Shown: piece after piece, positions 1 to 46,113 of the stretch | How the letters are laid out: each line of letters opens with the position of its first letter | How positions within the stretch are numbered: the stretch's first letter is position 1 | Assembly: GCF_044324785.1 (NCBI RefSeq) | Contig: NZ_CP172127.1 | Strand: one strand, 5' to 3' | DNA from: Escherichia coli | GTDB lineage: Bacteria > Pseudomonadota > Gammaproteobacteria > Enterobacterales > Enterobacteriaceae | DNA: 64,000 nucleotides | The notes under the pieces: model-generated | Told to the model about the DNA's origin: nothing | Databases searched by the model: none | Seen by the model: the letters and a program-made list of their open reading frames with translations, nothing else | Translations under genes and position numbers: made by a program

Positions 1-508
1 ACAGCGCGCCGTGAACGAAGATTTCGATCTCCATATCTGGCACCTGATTGCGGATCTCTTCAATCTCTTCCAGCGACAGCTCGCGAGAGAGGATCACGCG
101 GGTCAGGCCCATTTGCTGCCAGAATTTCACCGTCGCCCAGTTCACGGCGTTAGCCTGTACCGAGAGATGGATCGGCATTTCAGGGAAGTGCTCACGCACC
201 AGCATAATCAGCCCAGGATCGGACATTATCAGCGCATCCGGCCCCATTTCCACCACCGGTTTCAGGTCACGGATAAAGGTTTTCAGCTTGGCGTTGTGCG
301 GTGCAATGTTGACCACGACATAAAACTTTTTCCCCAGCGCATGGGCTTCATTAATGCCGAGCTGAAGATTTTCGTGGTTGAATTCGTTGTTGCGCACACG
401 CAGGGAGTAACGCGGCTGGCCCGCATAAACAGCATCTGCGCCATAAGCGAAAGCGTAACGCATATTTTTCAGCGTTCCCGCCGGGGAAAGGAGTTCCGGT
501 TTAAACAT
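1..508 (-). CDS. yegQ: 23S rRNA 5-hydroxycytidine synthase / U32-family peptidase YegQ (RlhA), N-terminal part; gene continues beyond window start
   Basis: Minus-strand translation from ATG at 508..506 reads MFKPELLSPAGTLKNMRYAFAYGADAVYAGQPRYSLRVRNNEF..., which I recognise as the YegQ N-terminus. No stop inside the window, so it is absent from the ORF track. The + ORF 11..550 is its antisense shadow. Confidence 0.85.
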   Translation of the reverse strand, partial: MFKPELLSPAGTLKNMRYAFAYGADAVYAGQPRYSLRVRNNEFNHENLQLGINEAHALGKKFYVVVNIAPHNAKLKTFIRDLKPVVEMGPDALIMSDPGLIMLVREHFPEMPIHLSVQANAVNWATVKFWQQMGLTRVILSRELSLEEIEEIRNQVPDMEIEIFVHGAL

Positions 509-709
509 AATTCTCTCGTTCTGATGACAGGTCAGATCCGCTTCACCTGATGAAGCGGCCAGGGGAGTGCCCCCACTTTAAGGGCGGGCATTGTAGCGCA
601 ATCGTTGGGGTTGGCTCCAGTGTAATTGTGATGAGCTTTTCGATGCCTGGCGTACAATTGACATCAGAATTGAGTATATTTACGACCGTGAATGCTAAGG
701 AGTTAAAAC

Positions 710-1315
710 ATGTGGATGTTAAAGAAGGGAATCACGCTGGCTCTGTTGGTTCTGTTTTCTCTGCCCGCTACTGCCGGTCTTTCGCTGGAGGAGACTGCTC
801 GTAAGGTGATTATCGGCTTTCAGCAAAAAGATGCTCAATTAATCAACTCGTTAATTGATAAAAAAACGGGGTTGTATGTTCTCTTCCAGCGTGGCGCTTC
901 GATGGATGTCGAAAATTTTAAGTCAATTGATTTTAAAACGCCTGTTCCCGAGTATTTGCTGTGGCCTTCGGCAGGGGAACATATTCCGCGAGATGAAGAG
1001 TTTGATAAGAAAACTATCCCGGAATTTGACTGTGAACGTGGTTGGAATAAGCACGGATATTTTATTAGCAGCAGCGATACACACCATAAAGTCAGCCGTA
1101 ATTTGGTCTTCACGCAGATGTTTGGTTCACCGCGAAACACTATTTCTGATGCGCAGATTGCCGCAGCGCGTCGAATGGAGTACGGGGCCGTGCGTGTGGT
1201 CGCTGCGCCAGAAGGGGGTAGCGATGGACTGGTATTTTATTTAAGTCAACTTTACGGTTATGACCGTGACTGGTATCTGACGGTGGTGGATCAGATTGGT
1301 GATTGTGGGGCGTGA
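710..1315 (+). CDS. hypothetical secreted/periplasmic protein (201 aa) with N-terminal signal peptide
   Basis: ORF with strong SD (TAAGGAG at 696-702, 7 nt before ATG 710). N-terminus MWMLKKGITLALLVLFSLPATAG has a signal-peptide shape. No family recognised. Confidence 0.6.
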   Translation: MWMLKKGITLALLVLFSLPATAGLSLEETARKVIIGFQQKDAQLINSLIDKKTGLYVLFQRGASMDVENFKSIDFKTPVPEYLLWPSAGEHIPRDEEFDKKTIPEFDCERGWNKHGYFISSSDTHHKVSRNLVFTQMFGSPRNTISDAQIAAARRMEYGAVRVVAAPEGGSDGLVFYLSQLYGYDRDWYLTVVDQIGDCGA

Positions 1316-1345
1316 TAAAGATTTATTCGCCCGCAAGCAGTGATG

Positions 1346-2746
1346 CTATTTAAAAGGTATGTAACCCCTTAATCTGTTGTGAAGTTCCGGATTGCGGGTA
1401 AAAAGCGCCTGAAGTTGCTGACGCTGGGGAGCATTCGGTTGAATGCCCGAAAGATTGAAATTGCGTTGCCATATTGCGAGCTGTTTATCTGCAAATTCTT
1501 CAGTTAGTTTGTGTTGCGATTGCAGAAGAAGAATTAAACCGTCCCATTTGTTCAAGTTATGATACAACCGACAATATGCGCAAGCATGTTTAACTGACGG
1601 TGCGTTTTCCAGCAACTGACGTATTTCCTCGAACGTGAGCGGAACGCGACACCATACACAGATGTTAACCATAAATCGAAGCCCGGAGGCGTCCGGGTTA
1701 GCCAGTGTGGTCAGAATAATCCCTTTGGCACCACCATCAGGATTGGCTTTCGCAAGAATATACATAGCGGCTAATCGCAGTGGGAATACATCCTGTGATA
1801 ATCCCCATTCAGCCAGTTTTAAAATATTGGCATCATGAATGGAGTCCAGCCCGTATAAAGCTGCCCGGCGCTGTGAGGGAGTATATTCAGTCGAGGTGAC
1901 AACATGACGCCAGAATTGCGCAACATCCATGACGTCATTAAGCATGTTTTTAGCGCGTAGACGGATCAACATATTGTTATCCAGCAGTAATGCGCTGTAC
2001 AACGCCGGAGGAATTTCTATAGCTCGGTCAGTAAGGCTAAACAACGTTGCTTGTCGAATACGCGGCCAGCGGTCTTTTAACAGACGAGTTAATACCGCTT
2101 CGCTTAACGGTAATTGTTGACGCAGCCAGTGGGTGACCGCCAGCATTCGTAAACCTTCGTCGGGCTGCTTGAGTATTAAAAGCAGCGAAGATTCATCATT
2201 AAAGTAGCCATATTCAATCAGCGTTTGTAATACTGCGCGGGAGAGTTTTTTATCAGGGCAAGTAAGCCAACACGTTAATTGTGGACGGCTATTTTCTGTC
2301 AATAAAAATCTAAGTATCTCGTCTACAAATGCACGGTGATCGTAACGCTGGCATTGGAGAAGGTTACGTATCATGGGAAGATTAACGGCAAATGCCGCTG
2401 CATTCTTATCCTTCTTTAAATGACGTAACGCTATGGTTGCAGCAAGGCGAACCTCTTTTACCCAGTCATTAGCTGCAAGTAATAATTCTTCTATAGCTGC
2501 AACATCCTCTTTTTGTCCCAGACATTGCACGGCCTTTTCTCGTATATATCCATTGTGGTGATGGGTAAGCTGGCAAAGAACCAGAGTATCGTTGAGATCA
2601 CAATCATGCGCTATATAATTGCCTGGATCGGCTATCATCGCCTGGAGTTGTTGCTGGATAAGAAATAATTCACAGTCAACAGAATTATTCATTTCGACAT
2701 TAAACAAAACCCTGCGTGTAAATAATGTACGCAATCCTTTGAGCAT
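1346..2746 (-). CDS. hypothetical HEAT/armadillo-like repeat protein (466 aa)
   Basis: Long ORF with an AAGGA SD upstream of ATG 2746. Repeated alpha-helical motifs (VRLAATIALRHL, LRLAAMYILAKANPDGG, IRLRAKNML) typical of HEAT/PBS-lyase-like repeats. No U32 peptidase motifs. Confidence 0.65.
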   Translation of the reverse strand: MLKGLRTLFTRRVLFNVEMNNSVDCELFLIQQQLQAMIADPGNYIAHDCDLNDTLVLCQLTHHHNGYIREKAVQCLGQKEDVAAIEELLLAANDWVKEVRLAATIALRHLKKDKNAAAFAVNLPMIRNLLQCQRYDHRAFVDEILRFLLTENSRPQLTCWLTCPDKKLSRAVLQTLIEYGYFNDESSLLLILKQPDEGLRMLAVTHWLRQQLPLSEAVLTRLLKDRWPRIRQATLFSLTDRAIEIPPALYSALLLDNNMLIRLRAKNMLNDVMDVAQFWRHVVTSTEYTPSQRRAALYGLDSIHDANILKLAEWGLSQDVFPLRLAAMYILAKANPDGGAKGIILTTLANPDASGLRFMVNICVWCRVPLTFEEIRQLLENAPSVKHACAYCRLYHNLNKWDGLILLLQSQHKLTEEFADKQLAIWQRNFNLSGIQPNAPQRQQLQALFTRNPELHNRLRGYIPFK

Positions 2747-2868
2747 AATTTTCCTTATCAGTTATGAGGAGAAAACTCATTTCATGATTAATAATTTCTT
2801 GAGGGATAGTAACTCTGTGGTGAGAGAAAATAAAGCCGGACGCCAACAACCCACGCCCGGCATCGTAA

Positions 2869-3201
2869 TTACGTATTGTCTTTCACCGTCTGGCTTGTGC
2901 CATTGGCTTTAACGGAGGCAATTCCGGTTTCACGAGATTGCGCGGTGGCGTACATCTGGCTGGAGCCGATAATTTGATGATTGGCGGCTTTCAGATTGAA
3001 ATAGAATTTGCCGTTGCTTGCCGTTTTTTTCTCATAGCGTTCTTCTTGCGGGCTGTTGCTACGCACCGACGCGATGCCCTTTTCCGCAGAGGCTTTTGAT
3101 GTATACAGCTCGCTGGTGAGGATAGTCTCACCATTGCCCGCTTTTAGCACAAACCGAAATTGATTATCACTGCTCTTACTGAGTTCAAACCAACCAGCCA
3201 T
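2869..3201 (-). CDS. yegP: UPF0339/DUF1508 protein YegP (110 aa)
   Basis: Translation from ATG 3201 (AAGGAG SD 5 nt upstream) reads MAGWFELSKSSDNQFRFVLKAGNGE..., matching YegP. The track ORF is 13 codons longer via an upstream start. Confidence 0.85.
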   Translation of the reverse strand: MAGWFELSKSSDNQFRFVLKAGNGETILTSELYTSKASAEKGIASVRSNSPQEERYEKKTASNGKFYFNLKAANHQIIGSSQMYATAQSRETGIASVKANGTSQTVKDNT

Positions 3202-3336
3202 AATGACTCCTTGATTGAAATTGCGTATCGAAAACAGCATCTAAAAGGACTGTTTACCGATTAAAGTATGAGCGATTTTCTGGTGCCTGCCAGGGCGAAG
3301 AGATAATGTCAGTTTGCTGACCATGCGTGGAATAAT

Positions 3337-3372
3337 GTTGCCGGATGCGGCGTGAATGCCTTCTCCGGCAGG
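3337..3372. repeat. REP (repetitive extragenic palindrome) element between baeR and yegP
   Basis: Sequence GTTGCCGGATGCGGCGTGAATGCCTTCTCCGGCAGG matches the enterobacterial REP consensus (GCCGGATGCGGCGTGAACGCCTTATCCGGC). Confidence 0.6.
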
Positions 3373-3380
3373 TAAAAATG

Positions 3381-4103
3381 TTAAACGATGCGGCAGGCGT
3401 CGGCTTCCCAGCGGTAACCGACGCCGTAAACGGCGCGGATAAATGACTGTTCGGCGTCGAGAGATTCCAGCTTGCGACGCAGGTTTTTAATGTGGCTGTC
3501 GATGGTGCGGTCGGTTACTACGCGGTAGTCGTCATAAAGATGATTGAGCAATTGCTCGCGGGAGAACACTTTTCCTGGTTCATGAGAGAGCGTTTTCAGC
3601 AGACGAAATTCCGCAGGCGTCAGGTCAAGCATTTTACCGCGCCATGAAGCCTGAAAACGACCTTCGTCGATAATCAACGGGCTTTCAGCATCCTGTTGCT
3701 GCAACTCACGCTGCGGTTTGCAACGGCGCAAAATGGTTTTGACGCGCGCTACCACTTCCCGTGGGCTGTACGGTTTGCAGATGTAGTCATCTGCGCCAAT
3801 TTCCAGCCCCAGCAGGCGGTCGATCTCTTCGATTTTTGCTGTCACCATCACGATCGGAATGTCAGAAAAATGACGAATCTCCCGACACAGCGTCAGGCCA
3901 TCGGTACCTGGCAGCATCAGATCGAGCAGGATCAGATCCGGCGGCGACTGGTGAACGTAGGGCAGTACCTGATCGCCGTGGCTGATAAGCGTCGGCGCAT
4001 AGCTCGCAGCACGCAGATAATCAATGAGCAACTGCCCCAGCTTCGGTTCATCTTCCACGATCAAAATACGCGGTGTGTTTTCGTCGATTGGTAACTCGGT
4101 CAT
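3381..4103 (-). CDS. baeR: response regulator BaeR (OmpR family), 240 aa
   Basis: Full-length translation [26 protein letters not shown]... recognised as BaeR. 4-bp overlap with baeS. Confidence 0.95.
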
Positions 4104-5503
4104 ACTTCTCTCTGTAAATCCCGTTCCAGCGGTAACTCTACTGTAATGCTTACCCCGCCAAAAGGCGAATGGGCAGCAATAATGCGGCCATTATGGGCTT
4201 CAACAATGTTCAGGCAAATCGCCAGCCCCAGCCCGGAACCGCCGCTGGCGCGGTTGCGGGAACCTTCGGTGCGATAAAAACGTTCAAACAATTTTTGTAG
4301 CTGATCGTCACTGACGCCCGGCGCGCTGTCAGCAAAGGTCAGGCGCACCGTTTTGTCGTGCTGCTCGGCAGAGATTTTCAGGCTGCCGCCACTGTCAGTG
4401 TAGCGCAGGCTGTTTTCCAGTAAGTTATTGAATAACTGCATTAAACGGTCGCGATCGCCAAATACGGTAATACTGTCTGGCAGGGAAAATTGCAGTTTCA
4501 GGCCACGGCTGGCGAATCGTTCGCGAAATGCGCCGCCCGCCACTTCCAGCAGTGGGATCAAATCTACCGGTGCTTTTTGATAGGCGAGAGCGCCTTCATC
4601 AGACATCGACAACTGATGGAGATCGTCAACCAGTTTGGTCAGTGTACCGACCTCCGCCTGTAAAGACGCCACCGTCTCCGGCGTGAATTTACGCACGCCA
4701 TCCTGAATGGCTTCCAGTTCACCGCGCAGCACCGCTAATGGCGTACGCAGTTCGTGAGAAATATCGGCCATAAAATCGCGCCGCATTTGCTGGTTTTTCT
4801 CCAGCGTGCTGGCAAGCTGGTTGAAGTCTTGCGCCAGTTTGCCCAGTTCATCTTCACTGGTGGGCGTCACGCGGGTTGTGAAATCGCCCGCCGCCAGTTT
4901 GTGCGTGCCGTCCACCAGCCGTTTGACCGGGGCCAACAGACCACGCGCCAGCAGAAAGGTGGCGAGCGCCGCGAGTAACGTTGCCAGGGCGACAATCAGC
5001 CAGCTGGTTTGCCGCTGTTGTTTATCGAAATTGATATCAGTATTGCGGGTCAGTCGCTCAACAGGGGAGGCAATCACCGCACCCACTTCCGCACCGTTGA
5101 CCAGAATGGGTCGCCGTGTACCGTCAGGTGGAATCGGCGCTCGCGGACCAACCAGCACTTTGTTGTTTTGATCAACCACCCAGAACTGAGTACGCCAGCC
5201 GTGTGGTGGCATACCCGGGCCGGGTTTATCTTCCGAATTATCGTGTTCAAATGAGCGCAGGATCTGAAAGACAAAGCGATCATTGTTGCGCAGGAAGCGC
5301 CAGTTGCCATGCTGCGCATACTGCTCGCCAAGCGCATCACTTAACAGTTGTAATCGCTGTTCATTACCATGCTTGATGTAATCAATAAAGCCACGCTCAA
5401 AACTGATACGCACCGCCCAGTGCATACTGATCAGCAAGACAATGCAGGTGGCGAAAATCGCCAGAAACAGTTTACCGGTAATACCGGGTCGCCAGAACTT
5501 CAT
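4100..5503 (-). CDS. baeS: sensor histidine kinase BaeS, 467 aa
   Basis: TM segments, H-box (SHELRTPL) and ATPase domain. Position between mdtD and baeR. Confidence 0.95.
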
Positions 5504-6915
5504 TGCGCGCTCCTTTTTCGCCGCGAAATAGCTACATTTTGATGCGTATCGTTCGGCACTCTGGCAAAGATGAACGCCGGAAGGGCGATGATCAACGCCA
5601 TGCTAAGCCAGGTGTACATAAAGACGGTTTGTGTGGTGCCGCTGTCGATGCTGACATGCTGCGAACCAAAAAGCCCCAGCAACAGCCCGGCGATGGTGAC
5701 GCCGATACTCATCGACAATTGCATAATCATCGACAGCAGACTGTTGCCGCTGCTCGCCAGATTGTCCGGAAGATCTTTCAGCGTCAGGGTGTTCATGGAG
5801 GAGAAACGGGTCGAGTTGACCATCCCTTGTAAAAACAGGACGAACGGCAAAACGTAGTACCAGCCCAGCAGAGCGGTAGTCATAAACAATAGGGTGACCA
5901 GCGACAGACCCAGCGTGGTCGCCACCAGTACCCGACGATAACCAAAGCGATTCACTACCTGTACCACAATTCGCTTCATCCCCATGCTGCCGAGCACCAT
6001 CGGGATCATCATCAGTCCGGCATGAAACGGTGAGAAGCCAAGGCCAATTTGCAGGAAAACCGGCGTCATAAAGGGCAACATGCCGCTACCGATACGTCCG
6101 GCAAAACTCCCCGCCAGGCCCAGCGAAAAGGTACGAGTGCGGAACAGTTTCAGACTGAAAAGAGCGCGGTTGTTATTTCTGGCGTGCAGCAGATAAAGCA
6201 CCAGTGCTACCACGCCAACAGCGACCAGGCCAGTAATCGCCAGCGGCGATAAACCTGTACCTTTACTGCCATCCAGCGCCAGGGTTAATACCGCCATGCC
6301 AACCGCCAGCAATAAAAAGCCGGAAAGATCAAAGCGCCGCGTCTGCATGGTGTAGTTCGGCATCAACATTAGTGTTGCGATCGCACCGATAATCCCCACC
6401 GGAATGTTGATCAAAAAGATCCAGTGCCACGATGCGTACTCCACCAGCAGACCGCCGAGCGCCGGACCCAGCAGCGGACCGACCTGACCGGGCAGTGTGA
6501 CAAAGGTCATCGCCGCCATATATTGCTCGCGCGGTACGATTTTCATCACCGTCAATCTGCCGACCGGCACCATCATCGCACCGCCAACGCCCTGTAACGC
6601 GCGTGCCAGCAACAGTTCGTTTAGCGTGCCGGAAAGCGCGCAAAACAGTGAACCGAGAGTAAACAGTACGATGGCGGTAAAGAAAATATTGCGCACGCCG
6701 ACTTTGTCCGCCAGCCAGCCGCTGGCGGGCAGCATCACCGCCACGGTCAGCACATAAGAGACAATGACCATGTGCATATGCAACGGACTTTCCCCGAGGC
6801 TTTGCGCCATTGAGGGAAGCGCGGTGTTGACGATGGTGGTGTCCAGCGACTGCATAAAGAAGCCGAAAGCCACAATCCACAATTGCCAGCGGGTGCTGTC
6901 GGGAAGATCTGTCAT
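5500..6915 (-). CDS. mdtD: MFS transporter MdtD, 471 aa
   Basis: Hydrophobic multi-TM protein between mdtC and baeS. Overlaps baeS start by 4 bp. Confidence 0.93.
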
Positions 6916-9900
6916 TTACTCGGTTACCGTTTGTTTAGGTTTACGCGAAAAACGCAGCCGCAGACGGTCGAAAAAGAGATACACCACCGGCGTGGTATAC
7001 AGCGTCAGAAGCTGGCTCATTACCAGACCGCCGACAATGGTGATCCCCAGGGGTTGGCGCAGCTCCGAACCGTCACCGCCCGACAATACCAGCGGCAGCG
7101 CGCCAAACAGCGCCGCCAGGGTAGTCATCATAATCGGGCGAAAACGCAGCAGACAGGCCTGGAAAATAGCTTCCTGCGGCGTCAGGTTACCGTGCCGTTG
7201 GGCTTCAAGCGCAAAATCGACCATCATAATGGCGTTTTTCTTCACGATGCCGATTAATAGCATGATCCCTATCAGGGCGATTAGGCTGAACGGGGCATTG
7301 AACAGCTCCAGCGCCAACAGCGCTCCAACGCCCGCCGAGGGCAGGGTGGAGAGAATCGTCAGCGGATGTACGTAACTCTCGTAAAGGATACCCAGCACGA
7401 TATACACCGTGGCGATGGCGGCGATAATCAGGATCACCTGCGAGTTCATCGTCTCCTGGAACACCTGCGCTGTTCCGGCAAAACTGCCGCGCACCGTCGA
7501 AGGCACGCCAAGTTGCGTCATTGCGCGATCGATCGCCGCACTGGCGTCCGAGAGCGATTTTCCGGTCGGCAGGTTAAACGAAATGGTCGAGGCTGCCGAT
7601 AACCCCTGATGATTCACCGACAGCGGAGCATTCGCCGGTTGCCATTTAGCGAAATACGACAGCGGGATCGCTTTTCCTTCGTTATTGATAACGAACATTT
7701 TTTCCAGCGCACTGATGTCCTGGGTATAGCGCGGATCCACTTCCATCACCACTTTATACTGGTTCATCGGCTGGTAAATGGTCGAGATTTGTCGCTGACC
7801 GAAGGCGTTATTTAACAGGCTGTTGGCGGCCTGCACGTCGATTCCCAGCCGTGCCATAGTGTCGCGGTCGTAAACCAGATTCATCTCCGCGCCGTTATCC
7901 TGCTGGTCGGAGTTCACGTCCGCCAGTTCCGGCAATGTCGCCAGTTTTTTGCGGATTTTCGGCTCCCATTCGCGCAGTGCCGCCAGGTCGTCGGACAGCA
8001 ACGTGTACTGATAGCTGGCGTTCGACTGACGTCCGCCAACGCGAATATCCTGTACCGCCATCAGGAACAGATTCGCCCCCGGTTCTTTCGCCAGCTTCAC
8101 CCGCAGACGGTCGATAATTTGCTGCGCCGTTTCGCTGCGTTCGCCGCGTGGCTTGAGGGTGATAAACATCATCCCGCTGTTCACCCGCGAACCGCCGGTA
8201 AATCCGGTGACATTATCCACTGCCGGATCGTCACGGATAATTTTCATGAAATCCTGCAACTTACCGCGCATCGCCTGAAACGAAATACTCTGATCCGCCT
8301 GTATCCCGCCCATCAACACGCCGGTGTCCTGCTCCGGGAAGAAGGTTTTCGGGATCGAGATATATAGCCAGATATTCAGCGCAATGGTGCCAAGCAGCAC
8401 CACGCCCACCAGACGGGTATGATTGAGCACCCATTTCAGTGACTTGCCGTAGCTTTGTTGCAGGGCTACCAACATGCGACCAAAACCACGCAGACGCTTT
8501 TGCTCGCGCGGCTTGCTGGCTTTCAGCATCCAGCCGCACATCATCGGCGTTAGCGTCAGGGAAACCAGCAACGAAATCCCAATGGCGACAGAAAGCGTCA
8601 CGGCAAATTCGCGTAACAGGCGGCCCGGCAATCCGCCCATCAACAGTAGCGGCAGGAACACCGCCACCAGTGACAGACTCATTGATAGCACCGTAAAGCC
8701 GACTTCACGGGTGCCTTGCAGCGCGGCCTGTAGCGGTTTCATCCCCGCTTCCAGATGACGGGCAATGTTTTCCAGCACCACGATGGCGTCATCCACCACA
8801 AAGCCAGTGGCGATGGTGAGCGCCATTAACGACAGGTTATTGAGACTGAATCCGCACAGGTACATCGCCGCAAAAGTACCAATCAGCGAAACCGGCACCG
8901 CAACGGCGGGAATAATAGTGGCGCGACCCGAGCGTAGGAATAAAAAGACCACCAGAATCACCAGCGCCACCGAGATAATCAACGTTTGCTCGACTTCCTC
9001 CAGCGAGGCGCGAATGGTGGGGGAGCGATCCTGAGCAATTTGCAGATCAATCGCCGCCGGAATGGTCTCCTGCAACTCCGGTAATTTTGCCCGGATGCTG
9101 TCAACCGTCTGGATAATATTGGCTTCCGGCAGCTTGCGGATCATCAGCAAAATAGCCGGTTTGGCGTTGGTCATCCCGGCGTTGCGCACATCCTGCACTG
9201 AGTCGGTCACCGTCGCCACATCGCCCAGACGAACCGCGCCGCCGTTGTTGTAATGAATAATTAACGGCTGATATTCAGCGGCGGTTTTTAGCTCATCATT
9301 GGTCTGGATCTGCCAGCGGTGAGTGCTATCTTCCAGCGCCCCCTGCGGTTTACGCACGTTGGCATTGCTGATGGCAGTGCGAACATCGTCCAGCGACACG
9401 CCCTGATTAAACAGCGCCTGCGGATTCAGCCCGACGCGCACGGCGGGCAGTGAGCTGCCGCCAACATCGACATCACCGACACCGTCGATTTGCGAAATCG
9501 TCGGAGCCAGCTGCGTCGAGGCGAAATCGTACAGTTCACCCTGCGAATAAGTATCGGATGTCAGCGTGAGGATCATAATTGGCGCATCCGACGGGTTCGC
9601 TTTGCGATAGGTCGGACGGCTGGGCATCCCACTGGGCAGCAAACTTTGTGCAGCGTTGATCGCCGCCTGCACATCACGCGCTGCGCCGTTGATATCCCGG
9701 TCAAAATCAAACTGCAAAATAATGCGCGTGCTGCCGAGCGAACTACTGGAGGTCATTTCACTAACCCCGGCAATGCGCCCAAGTGAGCGTTCCAGCGGTG
9801 TGGCAACGGAAGACGCCATTGTCTCCGGCGATGCACCGGGCAGCGAGGCGCTGACCATAATCACCGGAAAATCGACCTGTGGCAGCGGGGCGACCGGCAG

Positions 9901-14416: not shown

Positions 14417-14434
14417 GCCAATAAGGGAGAAAAA
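14417..14434 (-). promoter_or_regulatory. putative BaeR binding box in the mdtA promoter
   Basis: Minus-strand sequence TTTTTCTCCCTTATTGGC lies ~55-70 bp upstream of the mdtA ATG and matches the BaeR box consensus as I recall it (TTTTTCTCCATDATTGGC) at 16 of 18 positions. Confidence 0.5.
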
Positions 14435-14589: not shown

Positions 14590-14740
14590 CTGAAACGGGA
14601 AAGCCCCTCCCGAGGAAGGGGCCATAAATAAGGAAAGGGTCATGATGAAGCTACTCATCATCGTGGTGCTCTTAGTGATTAGCTACCCAGCATACTAAGA
14701 CTACCAGGGCGGGGGAAACCCCGCTCTACCCTCACTCCTG
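14590..14740 (-). ncRNA. sib: Sib antisense sRNA (antitoxin of ibs copy 1); boundaries approximate
   Basis: Minus-strand promoter-like TTGACA (14770..14765) and a CATACT -10 downstream of the ibs stop. Transcript would be fully antisense to ibs. Ends not determined. Confidence 0.45.
14642..14698 (+). CDS. ibs: Ibs-family small hydrophobic toxin (type I TA), copy 1: MMKLLIIVVLLVISYPAY
   Basis: 18-codon ORF after an AAGGAAAGGG SD. Sequence matches the Ibs toxin peptide family. Confidence 0.75.
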   Translation: MMKLLIIVVLLVISYPAY

Positions 14741-14917
14741 AAAGTATGCCTTCACGATAAGATTGTCAATCTGCAGGCTTTGCAGTCTGCGATCCTGCCA
14801 GCAAATATTCTTTGCGAGACGTTACGCAATAATCACATGTGAAACTATTTTATCCGCAAGTCAGCGATAGACTGCATTCAGGGCGAAAGGAGGTAAGCCG
14901 ATGATTTCAGCGGGACG

Positions 14918-15068
14918 CTGAAACGGGAAAGCCCCTCCCGAGGAAGGGGCCTTAAATAAGGAAAGGGTCATGATGAAGTGGATCATCATCGTGGTGCTCT
15001 TAGTCATAAGCTTCCCGGCTTACTAAGACTACCAGGGCGGGGGAACCCCCGCTCTACCCTCACTCCTG
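14918..15068 (-). ncRNA. sib: Sib antisense sRNA (copy 2); boundaries approximate
   Basis: Placed by repeat periodicity (~328 bp) relative to copy 1. Confidence 0.4.
14970..15026 (+). CDS. ibs: Ibs-family small hydrophobic toxin, copy 2: MMKWIIIVVLLVISFPAY
   Basis: Second repeat unit, same architecture. Confidence 0.75.
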   Translation: MMKWIIIVVLLVISFPAY

Positions 15069-15249
15069 AAAGTATGCCTTCACGATAAGATTGTCAATCT
15101 GCAGGCTTTGCAGTCTGCGATCCTGCCAGCAAATATTCTTTGCGAGTCGTTACGCAATAATCACAGAGGAAACTATTTTGTTCACGCGTTAGCGATAGAC
15201 TGCATTCAGGGCGAAAGGAGGTAAGCCGACGATTTCAGCGGGACGCTGA

Positions 15250-15400
15250 AACGGGAAACCCTCTCCCGGAGAAGAGGGCTTTTAATAAGGAAAGGGTTAT
15301 GATGAAGCACGTCATCATACTGGTGATACTCTTAGTGATTAGCTTCCAGGCTTACTAAGAACACCAGGGGGAGGGGGAAACCTCTCCCTAACCCTCACTC
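15250..15400 (-). ncRNA. sib: Sib antisense sRNA (copy 3); boundaries approximate
   Basis: Placed by repeat periodicity; a TTGACA-like box (TGTCAA on + strand) at 15427-15432. Confidence 0.4.
15299..15358 (+). CDS. ibs: Ibs-family small hydrophobic toxin, copy 3: MMKHVIILVILLVISFQAY
   Basis: Third repeat unit, same architecture. Confidence 0.75.
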   Translation: MMKHVIILVILLVISFQAY

Positions 15401-15578
15401 CTGAAATTATGTCACTCCGCCCTTAGTGTCAATCGACGGCTCTCCGTTCTTGCGAGGCGAATAGCAAAATTTTCTGCGCCGCCGGGCCTAATTCTGAAAG
15501 TTTCTTCGTTTGCTCTTATTTCATTGTTGCGGTCGGTATGATACCGGGCCTCAATAATTCTCTAAGAAAGGATTTCTT

Positions 15579-31634: not shown

Positions 31635-31673
31635 CAGTGTATTGGTAGCTAAAAAGCCAGGGGCGGTAGCGTG
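31635..31673 (+). promoter_or_regulatory. JUMPStart element with ops (RfaH antitermination) site upstream of the colanic acid operon
   Basis: CAGTGTATTGGTAGCTAAAAAGCCAGGGGCGGTAGCGTG contains the canonical ops GGCGGTAGCGTG, ~180 bp upstream of wza. Confidence 0.7.
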
Positions 31674-46012: not shown

Positions 46013-46113
46013 TAGTTGAATAATCAACCGGATTAATTCTCCGGTAAATAACGACAAAAACAAAATTGGCCGTTTCGGTCAGGGCCAACTACTGCCTGAA
46101 AAAGGGTAACGAT

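Follow-up and report, generated by a model that had tools for sequence, protein, structure and literature searches.

Between yegQ and yegP, K-12-type Escherichia coli genomes have a spacer of 146 bp, whereas the E. coli DNA analyzed here (contig NZ_CP172127.1; 64,000 nt, the whole of which we refer to as the window) carries two genes at this site. We use the working name orfA for the gene at 710-1315 on the plus strand and refer to the gene at 1346-2746 on the minus strand as the HEAT gene. How did these genes come to lie here, and do they belong together? A first reading of the DNA (the original prediction) took them for a two-gene insertion that might be part of a defence or secretion island. 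RefSeq already annotates the two genes, as "hypothetical protein" and "HEAT repeat domain-containing protein", respectively, and a literature search found no paper on orfA, the HEAT gene, their RefSeq accessions or the slot in which they lie. Here, we show that the interval between baeR/yegP and yegQ is hypervariable and non-mobile, and that the segment represents one of the many forms in which it occurs. The data fit better with two unrelated genes that are long resident in this interval in Enterobacteriaceae and missing from most E. coli lineages than with a recent insertion. The overall account that we favor, with somewhat better than even confidence, thus combines an old polymorphic interval, two independent genes and inferred roles of their products as binders; it is the functional part that is least certain.

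Results

Relative to K-12-type genomes, the segment that is present or absent comprises positions 600-2834 (2235 bp, 44.4% GC). In a genome of the K-12 type, 21 bp stand in its place, and positions 1-599 and 2835-3500 are alignable by blastn. Among 5426 complete E. coli genomes, to which all E. coli frequencies given here refer, the whole segment was found in five, in agreement with the original prediction that K-12 and most E. coli lack it; strains N3, GF60, 19KM1831, XJ6.1 and JNEC-KY178 are carriers. Each of the two genes is more widespread. orfA is present in 304 genomes, 296 of which have an allele at ~88% nucleotide identity (e.g. CFT073, UTI89, LF82 and ATCC 25922). Traces of the HEAT gene were detected in 96 genomes, 39 of which match it over 80% or more of its length; the other occurrences are fragments of 22-63%, many of them adjoining IS1. 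Of the 39 genomes in which the HEAT gene is nearly complete, 34 lack orfA (e.g. M160133 and 2017-03-3CC), and the two genes occur together in 5 of the ~395 genomes that have either of them; one more genome combines orfA with a fragment of the HEAT gene. In Escherichia sp. MOD1-EC7003 (L018 4017-5965), the same orfA is present (99% amino acid identity) and the HEAT match comes in two tblastn pieces, with 84% identity over residues 30-208 and 96% over residues 209-466, which suggests a frameshift or a mosaic allele.

The slot is found in a variety of states. It is empty in the K-12 type, and in other genomes it contains ParE-ParD; a ParD remnant and the HEAT gene; the HEAT gene alone, with a putative 97-bp ParD remnant; a ParD remnant, a HEAT fragment and IS1, with yegP deleted; orfA, the 3' half of the HEAT gene and a gene for a secreted TPR-like protein; a four-gene B2 cluster; or, as in the window, orfA and the HEAT gene. 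In the HEAT-only strains, 97 bp that look like a remnant of a ParD gene replace positions 623-1351. This orfA-specific sub-segment, delimited by blastn against two such loci (L002 and L003), their annotations and the junction sequences, is thus a separate indel relative to these strains. The B2 cluster was read in CFT073, the sole B2-type genome whose annotation was read; here, the slot (L006 886-5601) holds PcfJ-DUF1266-DUF4034 (702 aa)-orfA on the plus strand and no HEAT gene. PADLOC gave no convincing match for the PcfJ, DUF1266 and DUF4034 proteins of this cluster, and no relevant literature on DUF1266/DUF4034 was found.

The same interval is occupied in other Enterobacteriaceae. Homologues of the HEAT protein with 37-60% amino acid identity were found at seven non-Escherichia enterobacterial loci. 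In all seven, the gene has the orientation of baeR, follows it directly and precedes yegQ (Yokenella regensburgei, Phytobacter diazotrophicus, Enterobacteriaceae UBA3516 and four further enteric contigs), with the start codon 80-120 nt after the baeR stop codon. Within Enterobacteriaceae, no site of the HEAT family other than this interval was found. Homologues of orfA (41-55% amino acid identity) were found in Klebsiella and in Salmonella enterica. Those of Klebsiella aerogenes and Klebsiella sp. MISC125, the latter present as two tandem copies, are located between yegQ and baeR. The homologue of S. enterica adjoins yegQ and is divergently transcribed, and baeR is not in the stretch that was read; the Salmonella "putative exported protein" G5LQR9, which is of the same family and also adjoins yegQ, is 44-45% identical to the window protein. 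Closer to hand, the orthologues of UTI89 (Q1R9Z0) and CFT073 (WP_000928864) share family and yegQ-adjacent locus with the window protein and are 82-84% identical to it. BaeR, BaeS, MdtD and YegQ of the other genera are 74-96% identical to the window proteins. By contrast, tblastn gave no match for yegP in L008-L020, and the gene is missing from the baeR-yegQ interval of every non-Escherichia locus examined. Thus, what the original prediction regarded as a core flank on this side is lineage-specific at this site.

At every locus of other genera checked by tblastn and gene lists, orfA and the HEAT gene were never found together. The original prediction had itself set the absence of a conserved pair elsewhere as grounds for giving up the module, and the pair is not conserved; with the two genes independently distributed in E. 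coli and occurring singly in other genera, reading them as a two-gene module fails.

The slot has a third resident, a TPR-like protein with a signal peptide (~230-240 aa; 239 aa); the proteins of E. coli, Klebsiella sp. MISC125 and another enteric contig share 64-66% identity. Its gene lies at 3064-3783 (-) in L004, at 7614-8336 (-) in L017 and at 5310-5996 (+) in L008, where it intervenes between baeR and the HEAT gene. The TPR-like protein was considered as a homologue of the HEAT protein and rejected, as no homology was found. In L013, a gene pair for a TacA-like antitoxin and a GNAT acetyltransferase (7598-8343) is located between the HEAT gene and yegQ, in the position that ParD(E) has in E. 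coli and L008; in other words, different toxin-antitoxin families are found at the same sub-site.

Within the window, the segment carries no sign of mobility. The coordinates of yegQ, yegP and both open reading frames were as originally given, and RefSeq lists the same four coding sequences for this region of E. coli N3, a strain with 98.6% identity to window positions 1-3400. No integrase or transposase reading frame is present in 509-2868, as had been predicted. A search for terminal direct or inverted repeats of the segment yielded only matches of 12-17 nt, which are at chance level, and none at the junctions. Promoter and terminator scans of the segment likewise remained at chance level. 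An Rfam scan of window positions 1-4000 gave no match at E≤1 inside 509-2868, with no dedicated tRNA scan made, and one match below the threshold, at 3330-3370 in the yegP-baeR spacer. The segment therefore does not have the features of a mobile genomic island (an integrase, transposase or recombinase, and direct repeats or a tRNA anchor). As the original prediction had noted, the segment has a higher AT content than the core flanks: GC content is 44.4% in the HEAT gene and 47.0% in orfA compared to 53.5% in the yegQ part, 53.9% in baeR, 54.4% in baeS and a value within 53-55% in mdtD, with 49.6% for the whole window.

These observations bear on the idea that a two-gene defence or secretion module was acquired horizontally between yegQ and yegP. 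The low GC content, the presence in only five genomes and a weak PADLOC match of the HEAT protein to HEAT-ARM_XIII (1.6e-7) are what such a module could show. However, this was the only PADLOC match of the HEAT protein; it covers 190 of 1972 profile positions, limited to a generic repeat stretch, and there is no partner gene. Neither mobility genes nor border repeats were found, and neither protein has a match in PHROGs or NCBIfam or a meaningful one in PADLOC. Moreover, because the genes are convergent, with their stop codons 30 bp apart, they cannot share a transcript. Together with the independent distributions of the genes, this makes an acquired module highly improbable.

Both genes are under selection. 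Nonsynonymous (dN) and synonymous (dS) divergence was estimated by the Nei-Gojobori method. Within E. coli, the HEAT gene has a dS of 0.04-0.16 and orfA one of 0.01-0.30, compared to 0.04-0.45 for yegP, baeR and baeS; silent-site divergence of the two genes is no greater than that of their surroundings. Values of dN/dS are 0.12-0.29 for the HEAT gene and 0.14-0.32 for orfA, and 0.02-0.08 for baeR and baeS. Thus, the two genes are under purifying but relaxed selection, with ~5-fold more amino acid change than their neighbors. The dN/dS values also bear on whether the two genes are functionless, decaying relics without a present role. Over half of the HEAT occurrences in E. coli are fragmentary or disrupted by IS1, frameshifted copies of orfA are present in public assemblies, and the HEAT match of MOD1-EC7003 is split, all of which is what decay would leave behind. 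Yet the window copies are intact, with an AAGGA(G) Shine-Dalgarno sequence 6-7 nt before the start codon of each gene (by eye), dN/dS values in this range indicate continuing purifying selection, and both families are conserved across genera, that of orfA even across phyla with near-invariant residues. We consider it very unlikely that the genes are relics.

Divergence is also marked in the adjoining core region. No complete E. coli genome is at least 99% identical to the window over baeR-baeS-mdtD (3381-6915); the best, strain 042, reaches 98.6%, and 1246 genomes are only 90-95% identical. For baeS, dS relative to CFT073 is 0.45. The core region adjoining the variable slot thus has an unusually deep allelic divergence.

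What might the two proteins do? In line with the original prediction, one has a signal peptide, the other is a HEAT-like repeat protein, and neither has an assigned function; no specific family matched. The orfA protein (201 aa) starts with a typical Sec signal (MWMLKKGITLALLVLFSLPATA/G) and is predicted to be exported. The B2-type protein has a lipobox cysteine here (..ANAGC), where the window protein has ..ATAGL. The AlphaFold2 model built on a deep family alignment (mean predicted local distance difference test (pLDDT) score 89.7) predicts an NTF2-like alpha+beta cone, in which helices pack on a curved antiparallel sheet, with an insertion of ~45 residues (about 71-115). Near-invariant positions include C108, C199, G116, W112, W188, E157 and D194. 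In its predicted fold, the protein falls in the superfamily of NTF2-like, SnoaL and cystatin-like proteins (PDB 3BB9, 3F40 and 4Q53 (DUF4783); DUF4348 in AFDB), from which it is set apart by the insertion, the conserved cysteine pair, a D-C-S/G-A ending and the lack of a Pfam membership.

The orfA family is widespread. In a word-indexed search of 5.8 billion proteins, the families of orfA (21 clusters) and of the HEAT protein (16-22 clusters) both appear very small; a full hidden Markov model search of 1.84 billion representatives identified 215 members of the orfA family (50% clustering) at E≤1e-3. They come from Bacteroidota, Pseudomonadota and Acidobacteriota; named sources are Prevotellaceae, Holophagales, Sphingobacterium, Elizabethkingia, Riemerella, Acinetobacter, Sulfurovum, Leminorella and Salmonella, and every named member bears one of the labels "uncharacterized", "lipoprotein" and "putative exported protein". 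Nearly all members have 190-230 aa and a signal peptide or lipobox, and most end in D-C-S/G-A. In a few cases, the member forms the C-terminal domain of a larger secreted protein, and the N-terminal parts of these proteins are heterogeneous. MORN-type repeats suspected in these fusions were not confirmed by Pfam, which instead identified LRR_4, DUF7738 and DUF4923 as partners, once each. Pfam gave no match for the window protein at E≤10 and none for 95 family members at E≤0.001, and the NTF2-type families in Pfam (SnoaL, DUF4440, Imm-NTF2, DUF4783, DUF4348 and similar) did not match. Searches of NCBIfam, PHROGs and PADLOC gave no match to orfA, and a PDB sequence search gave no relative. Distant members on various contigs, including those of Prevotellaceae, have no conserved neighbor, and the same is true of distant HEAT homologues (Legionella and the Rahnella megaplasmid).

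The HEAT protein (466 aa) has no signal peptide. It matches Pfam HEAT_2 over residues 57-108 (i-Evalue 8e-5), and the sole PDB sequence matches of its family profile are consensus alphaRep designs (1.9e-7). The match to HEAT-repeat profiles is confined to the first repeats and the remainder is too diverged. AlphaFold2 (mean pLDDT 88.3) models 28 helices in a solenoid of tandem helix-turn-helix hairpins, as in HEAT-like repeat proteins of the HEAT_2/PBS-lyase type, and residues 1-21 as disordered; the protein is thus predicted to be a long cytoplasmic HEAT-like alpha-solenoid. The matches to PADLOC HEAT-ARM_XIII and to Pfam DNA_alkylation (E 0.14) were dismissed as generic repeat matches; for the proposed defence or secretion island, nothing but this repeat-level PADLOC match was found. 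E. coli has another HEAT-repeat protein, YibA (PDB 1OYZ), whose gene lies 20 bp 3' of rhsA in K-12 and is followed by a TPR-like gene. Homology of the HEAT protein to YibA was rejected (hhalign probability 0.2%).

The analogy to YibA and CdiI raises the question of whether the two genes could be orphan immunity or inhibitor genes, with the HEAT protein directed against a toxin acting in the cytoplasm (from an Rhs, contact-dependent inhibition (CDI) or type VI secretion system (T6SS)) and orfA against a toxin acting in the periplasm. In that case, diversifying or balancing selection would maintain the slot as a small reserve of protective genes. This would be consistent with the position of yibA next to rhsA, the predicted periplasmic localization of orfA and its two tandem paralogues in Klebsiella sp. 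MISC125, and the ParDE and TacA-acetyltransferase pairs that the slot houses elsewhere. It would also be consistent with the patchy retention of both genes and with their evolving several-fold faster than their neighbors. However, no toxin gene was seen in the slot in the window and the ~25 related loci that were read, and in the distant loci read, neither family was found next to a toxin. Besides the lack of homology to YibA, no Pfam immunity family matched, Imm-NTF2 included. Moreover, the many polar residues that the orfA family conserves across phyla are unusual for immunity proteins, and dN/dS is well under 1. We regard immunity functions as a rather unlikely explanation.

A different kind of function is suggested by the position of the HEAT gene. 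It could be an accessory of the Bae response and Mdt efflux (mdtABCD-baeSR) that is ancestral in Enterobacteriaceae and has mostly been lost. Its strict position after baeR on the same strand in all seven non-Escherichia loci, a further variant in L008 with the TPR-like gene in between, and the lack of any other site of the family in Enterobacteriaceae would support such a link. An open reading frame overlap of 4 nt with baeR would even have allowed translational coupling. But the conserved start of the HEAT protein, M-x-x-K-x-(F/L)-L-x-x-W, lies 80-120 nt 3' of baeR, and the overlap was therefore judged to come from an over-extended open reading frame call and coupling was rejected. In five of the other loci (L009, L010, L013, L015 and L020), visual inspection of the spacer between baeR and the HEAT gene suggests GC-rich hairpins that lack a clear U-tract (e.g. 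CAGCCGGGTG...CACCCGGCTG in L013 and AGCCGGGGCGGTTTGTCCCCGGTCT in L020); they may represent partial terminators or REP-like elements. The E. coli genes are separated by yegP and a terminator-like site. Using the sequence that we take to be the BaeR box (TTTTTCTCCATDATTGGC), a scan of the window with up to 3 mismatches gave a single site, at 14417-14434 (-), presumably upstream of mdtA, and none near orfA or the HEAT gene. Finally, the HEAT gene is rare and often pseudogenized while baeSR is universal, and homologues outside Enterobacteriaceae are not near baeSR. A role in the Bae response or in Mdt efflux is therefore unlikely.

The remaining features of the region are as follows. The window holds the 5' part of yegQ (trhP; 1-508, -), which encodes a tRNA U34 hydroxylase and is the core flank on this side, as identified by identity to YegQ and by the RefSeq annotation in strain N3; its translation (MFKPELLSPAGTLKNMRYAF...) shows 93-100% identity to the YegQ proteins of all compared loci. 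The divergent intergenic region between yegQ and orfA (509-709) was divided by blastn border mapping into positions 509-599, which are common with K-12, positions 600-622/631, which are common with all occupied variants, and positions ~632-705, which are common only to strains with the window type of orfA. No sigma-70-like site above the scan cut-off was detected in 509-709. On the other side, the spacer between yegP and the HEAT gene (2747-2868, -), in which the K-12 alignment resumes at 2835, contains the terminator-like hairpin (2847-2835; terminator scan), directly after yegP and kept in K-12-type genomes. The baeR-side flank itself is yegP (2869-3201, -; YegP family, 110 aa; RefSeq annotation), followed by the core gene baeR (3381-4103, -) and then by baeS and mdtD. 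Adjoining the BaeR-box match, three tandem copies of Sib RNA (Rfam RF00113, 138-150 bits) are found at 14627-15432 (-); K-12 presumably has two copies at this mdtA-side site. Further along, two JUMPstart elements and an algC RNA motif are located at 31635-31673, 46060-46109 and 56933-56971 (+), and within 56000-64000, GC content drops to ~30% from 58 kb to the end of the window. These are probably the colanic acid and O-antigen clusters.

Discussion

We suggest that the two genes were not brought in together and recently, but have resided in the baeR-yegQ interval for a long time. Three observations lead us to prefer old residence with loss over a recent insertion: homologues occupy the same interval in other Enterobacteriaceae, dS of the two genes is like that of the flanks, and many truncated, IS1-cut remnants of the HEAT gene are present in E. 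coli. In addition, HEAT homologues of other genera have a host-like GC content (55-60%, with ~56% for the locus). In this model, repeated loss and the shuffling of alleles via the conserved flanks would have given rise to the present variety of states. With lower confidence, the orfA protein may act in the periplasm by binding a small ligand or an envelope protein, possibly stabilized by a C108-C199 disulfide, and the HEAT protein may be a protein-binding scaffold in the cytoplasm, with the two acting independently of each other. The fast evolution of the proteins and the patchy retention of their genes would, again with lower confidence, point to antagonistic or niche-specific rather than housekeeping roles.

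Several findings weigh against this account. The HEAT gene of Escherichia, at 44% GC, is below its flanks, and all orfA homologues are at 43-47% compared to ~60% for Klebsiella baeS; such AT-richness would be expected of genes of foreign origin. Empty strains have a microhomology of 3-4 bp at most at the junction, which does not decide between deletion and insertion. Given the low GC content and this uninformative junction, the genes may also have been acquired by locus-specific recombination. Moreover, we infer the polarity of the changes, and repeated homologous replacement mediated by the flanks would equally hold the genes in the slot. The HEAT family is not tied to baeR outside Enterobacteriaceae: neither baeSR nor a toxin gene is near the distant homologues in Legionella, in Rhizobacter and on a Rahnella megaplasmid, where the homologue lies beside hut genes. 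In the enteric branch of the orfA family, the polar residues R60, D120 and S160, which are conserved in the wider family, are replaced. Finally, the proposed functions derive from predicted fold class and localization.

Variable regions of E. coli chromosomes likewise have fixed core flanks, a varied content that includes toxin-antitoxin modules and IS1, and a lower GC content. The slot described here differs from them in that it has no integrase, att-like repeats or tRNA anchor and in that the same cargo families, at 37-66% identity, occur in it across genera. Because these families recur at the same site, the slot resembles an old polymorphic locus more than a site at which mobile elements land. 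A more far-reaching scheme, which we put forward as doubtful, is that antagonistic or envelope-stress roles keep its residents (the HEAT and orfA genes, the TPR-like gene and the toxin-antitoxin pairs) polymorphic, with orfA belonging to a new, phylum-spanning family of periplasmic binders or inhibitors and the HEAT protein being a lineage-specific cytoplasmic partner of Bae/Mdt or a scaffold that neutralizes toxins.

It is mildly unexpected that fast-evolving genes are faithful to one interval beside baeSR across genera, and that a family of the size of orfA has no Pfam model. Current views on defence, secretion and envelope stress are unchanged unless a function is shown. For annotators, there is a widespread secreted NTF2-like family that lacks a Pfam model, and a rare HEAT gene that always follows baeR in Enterobacteriaceae. 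If our account is true, the locus is a clean case in which a comparison centered on K-12 misleads, and the "insertion" is more likely the retention of genes that the reference has lost.

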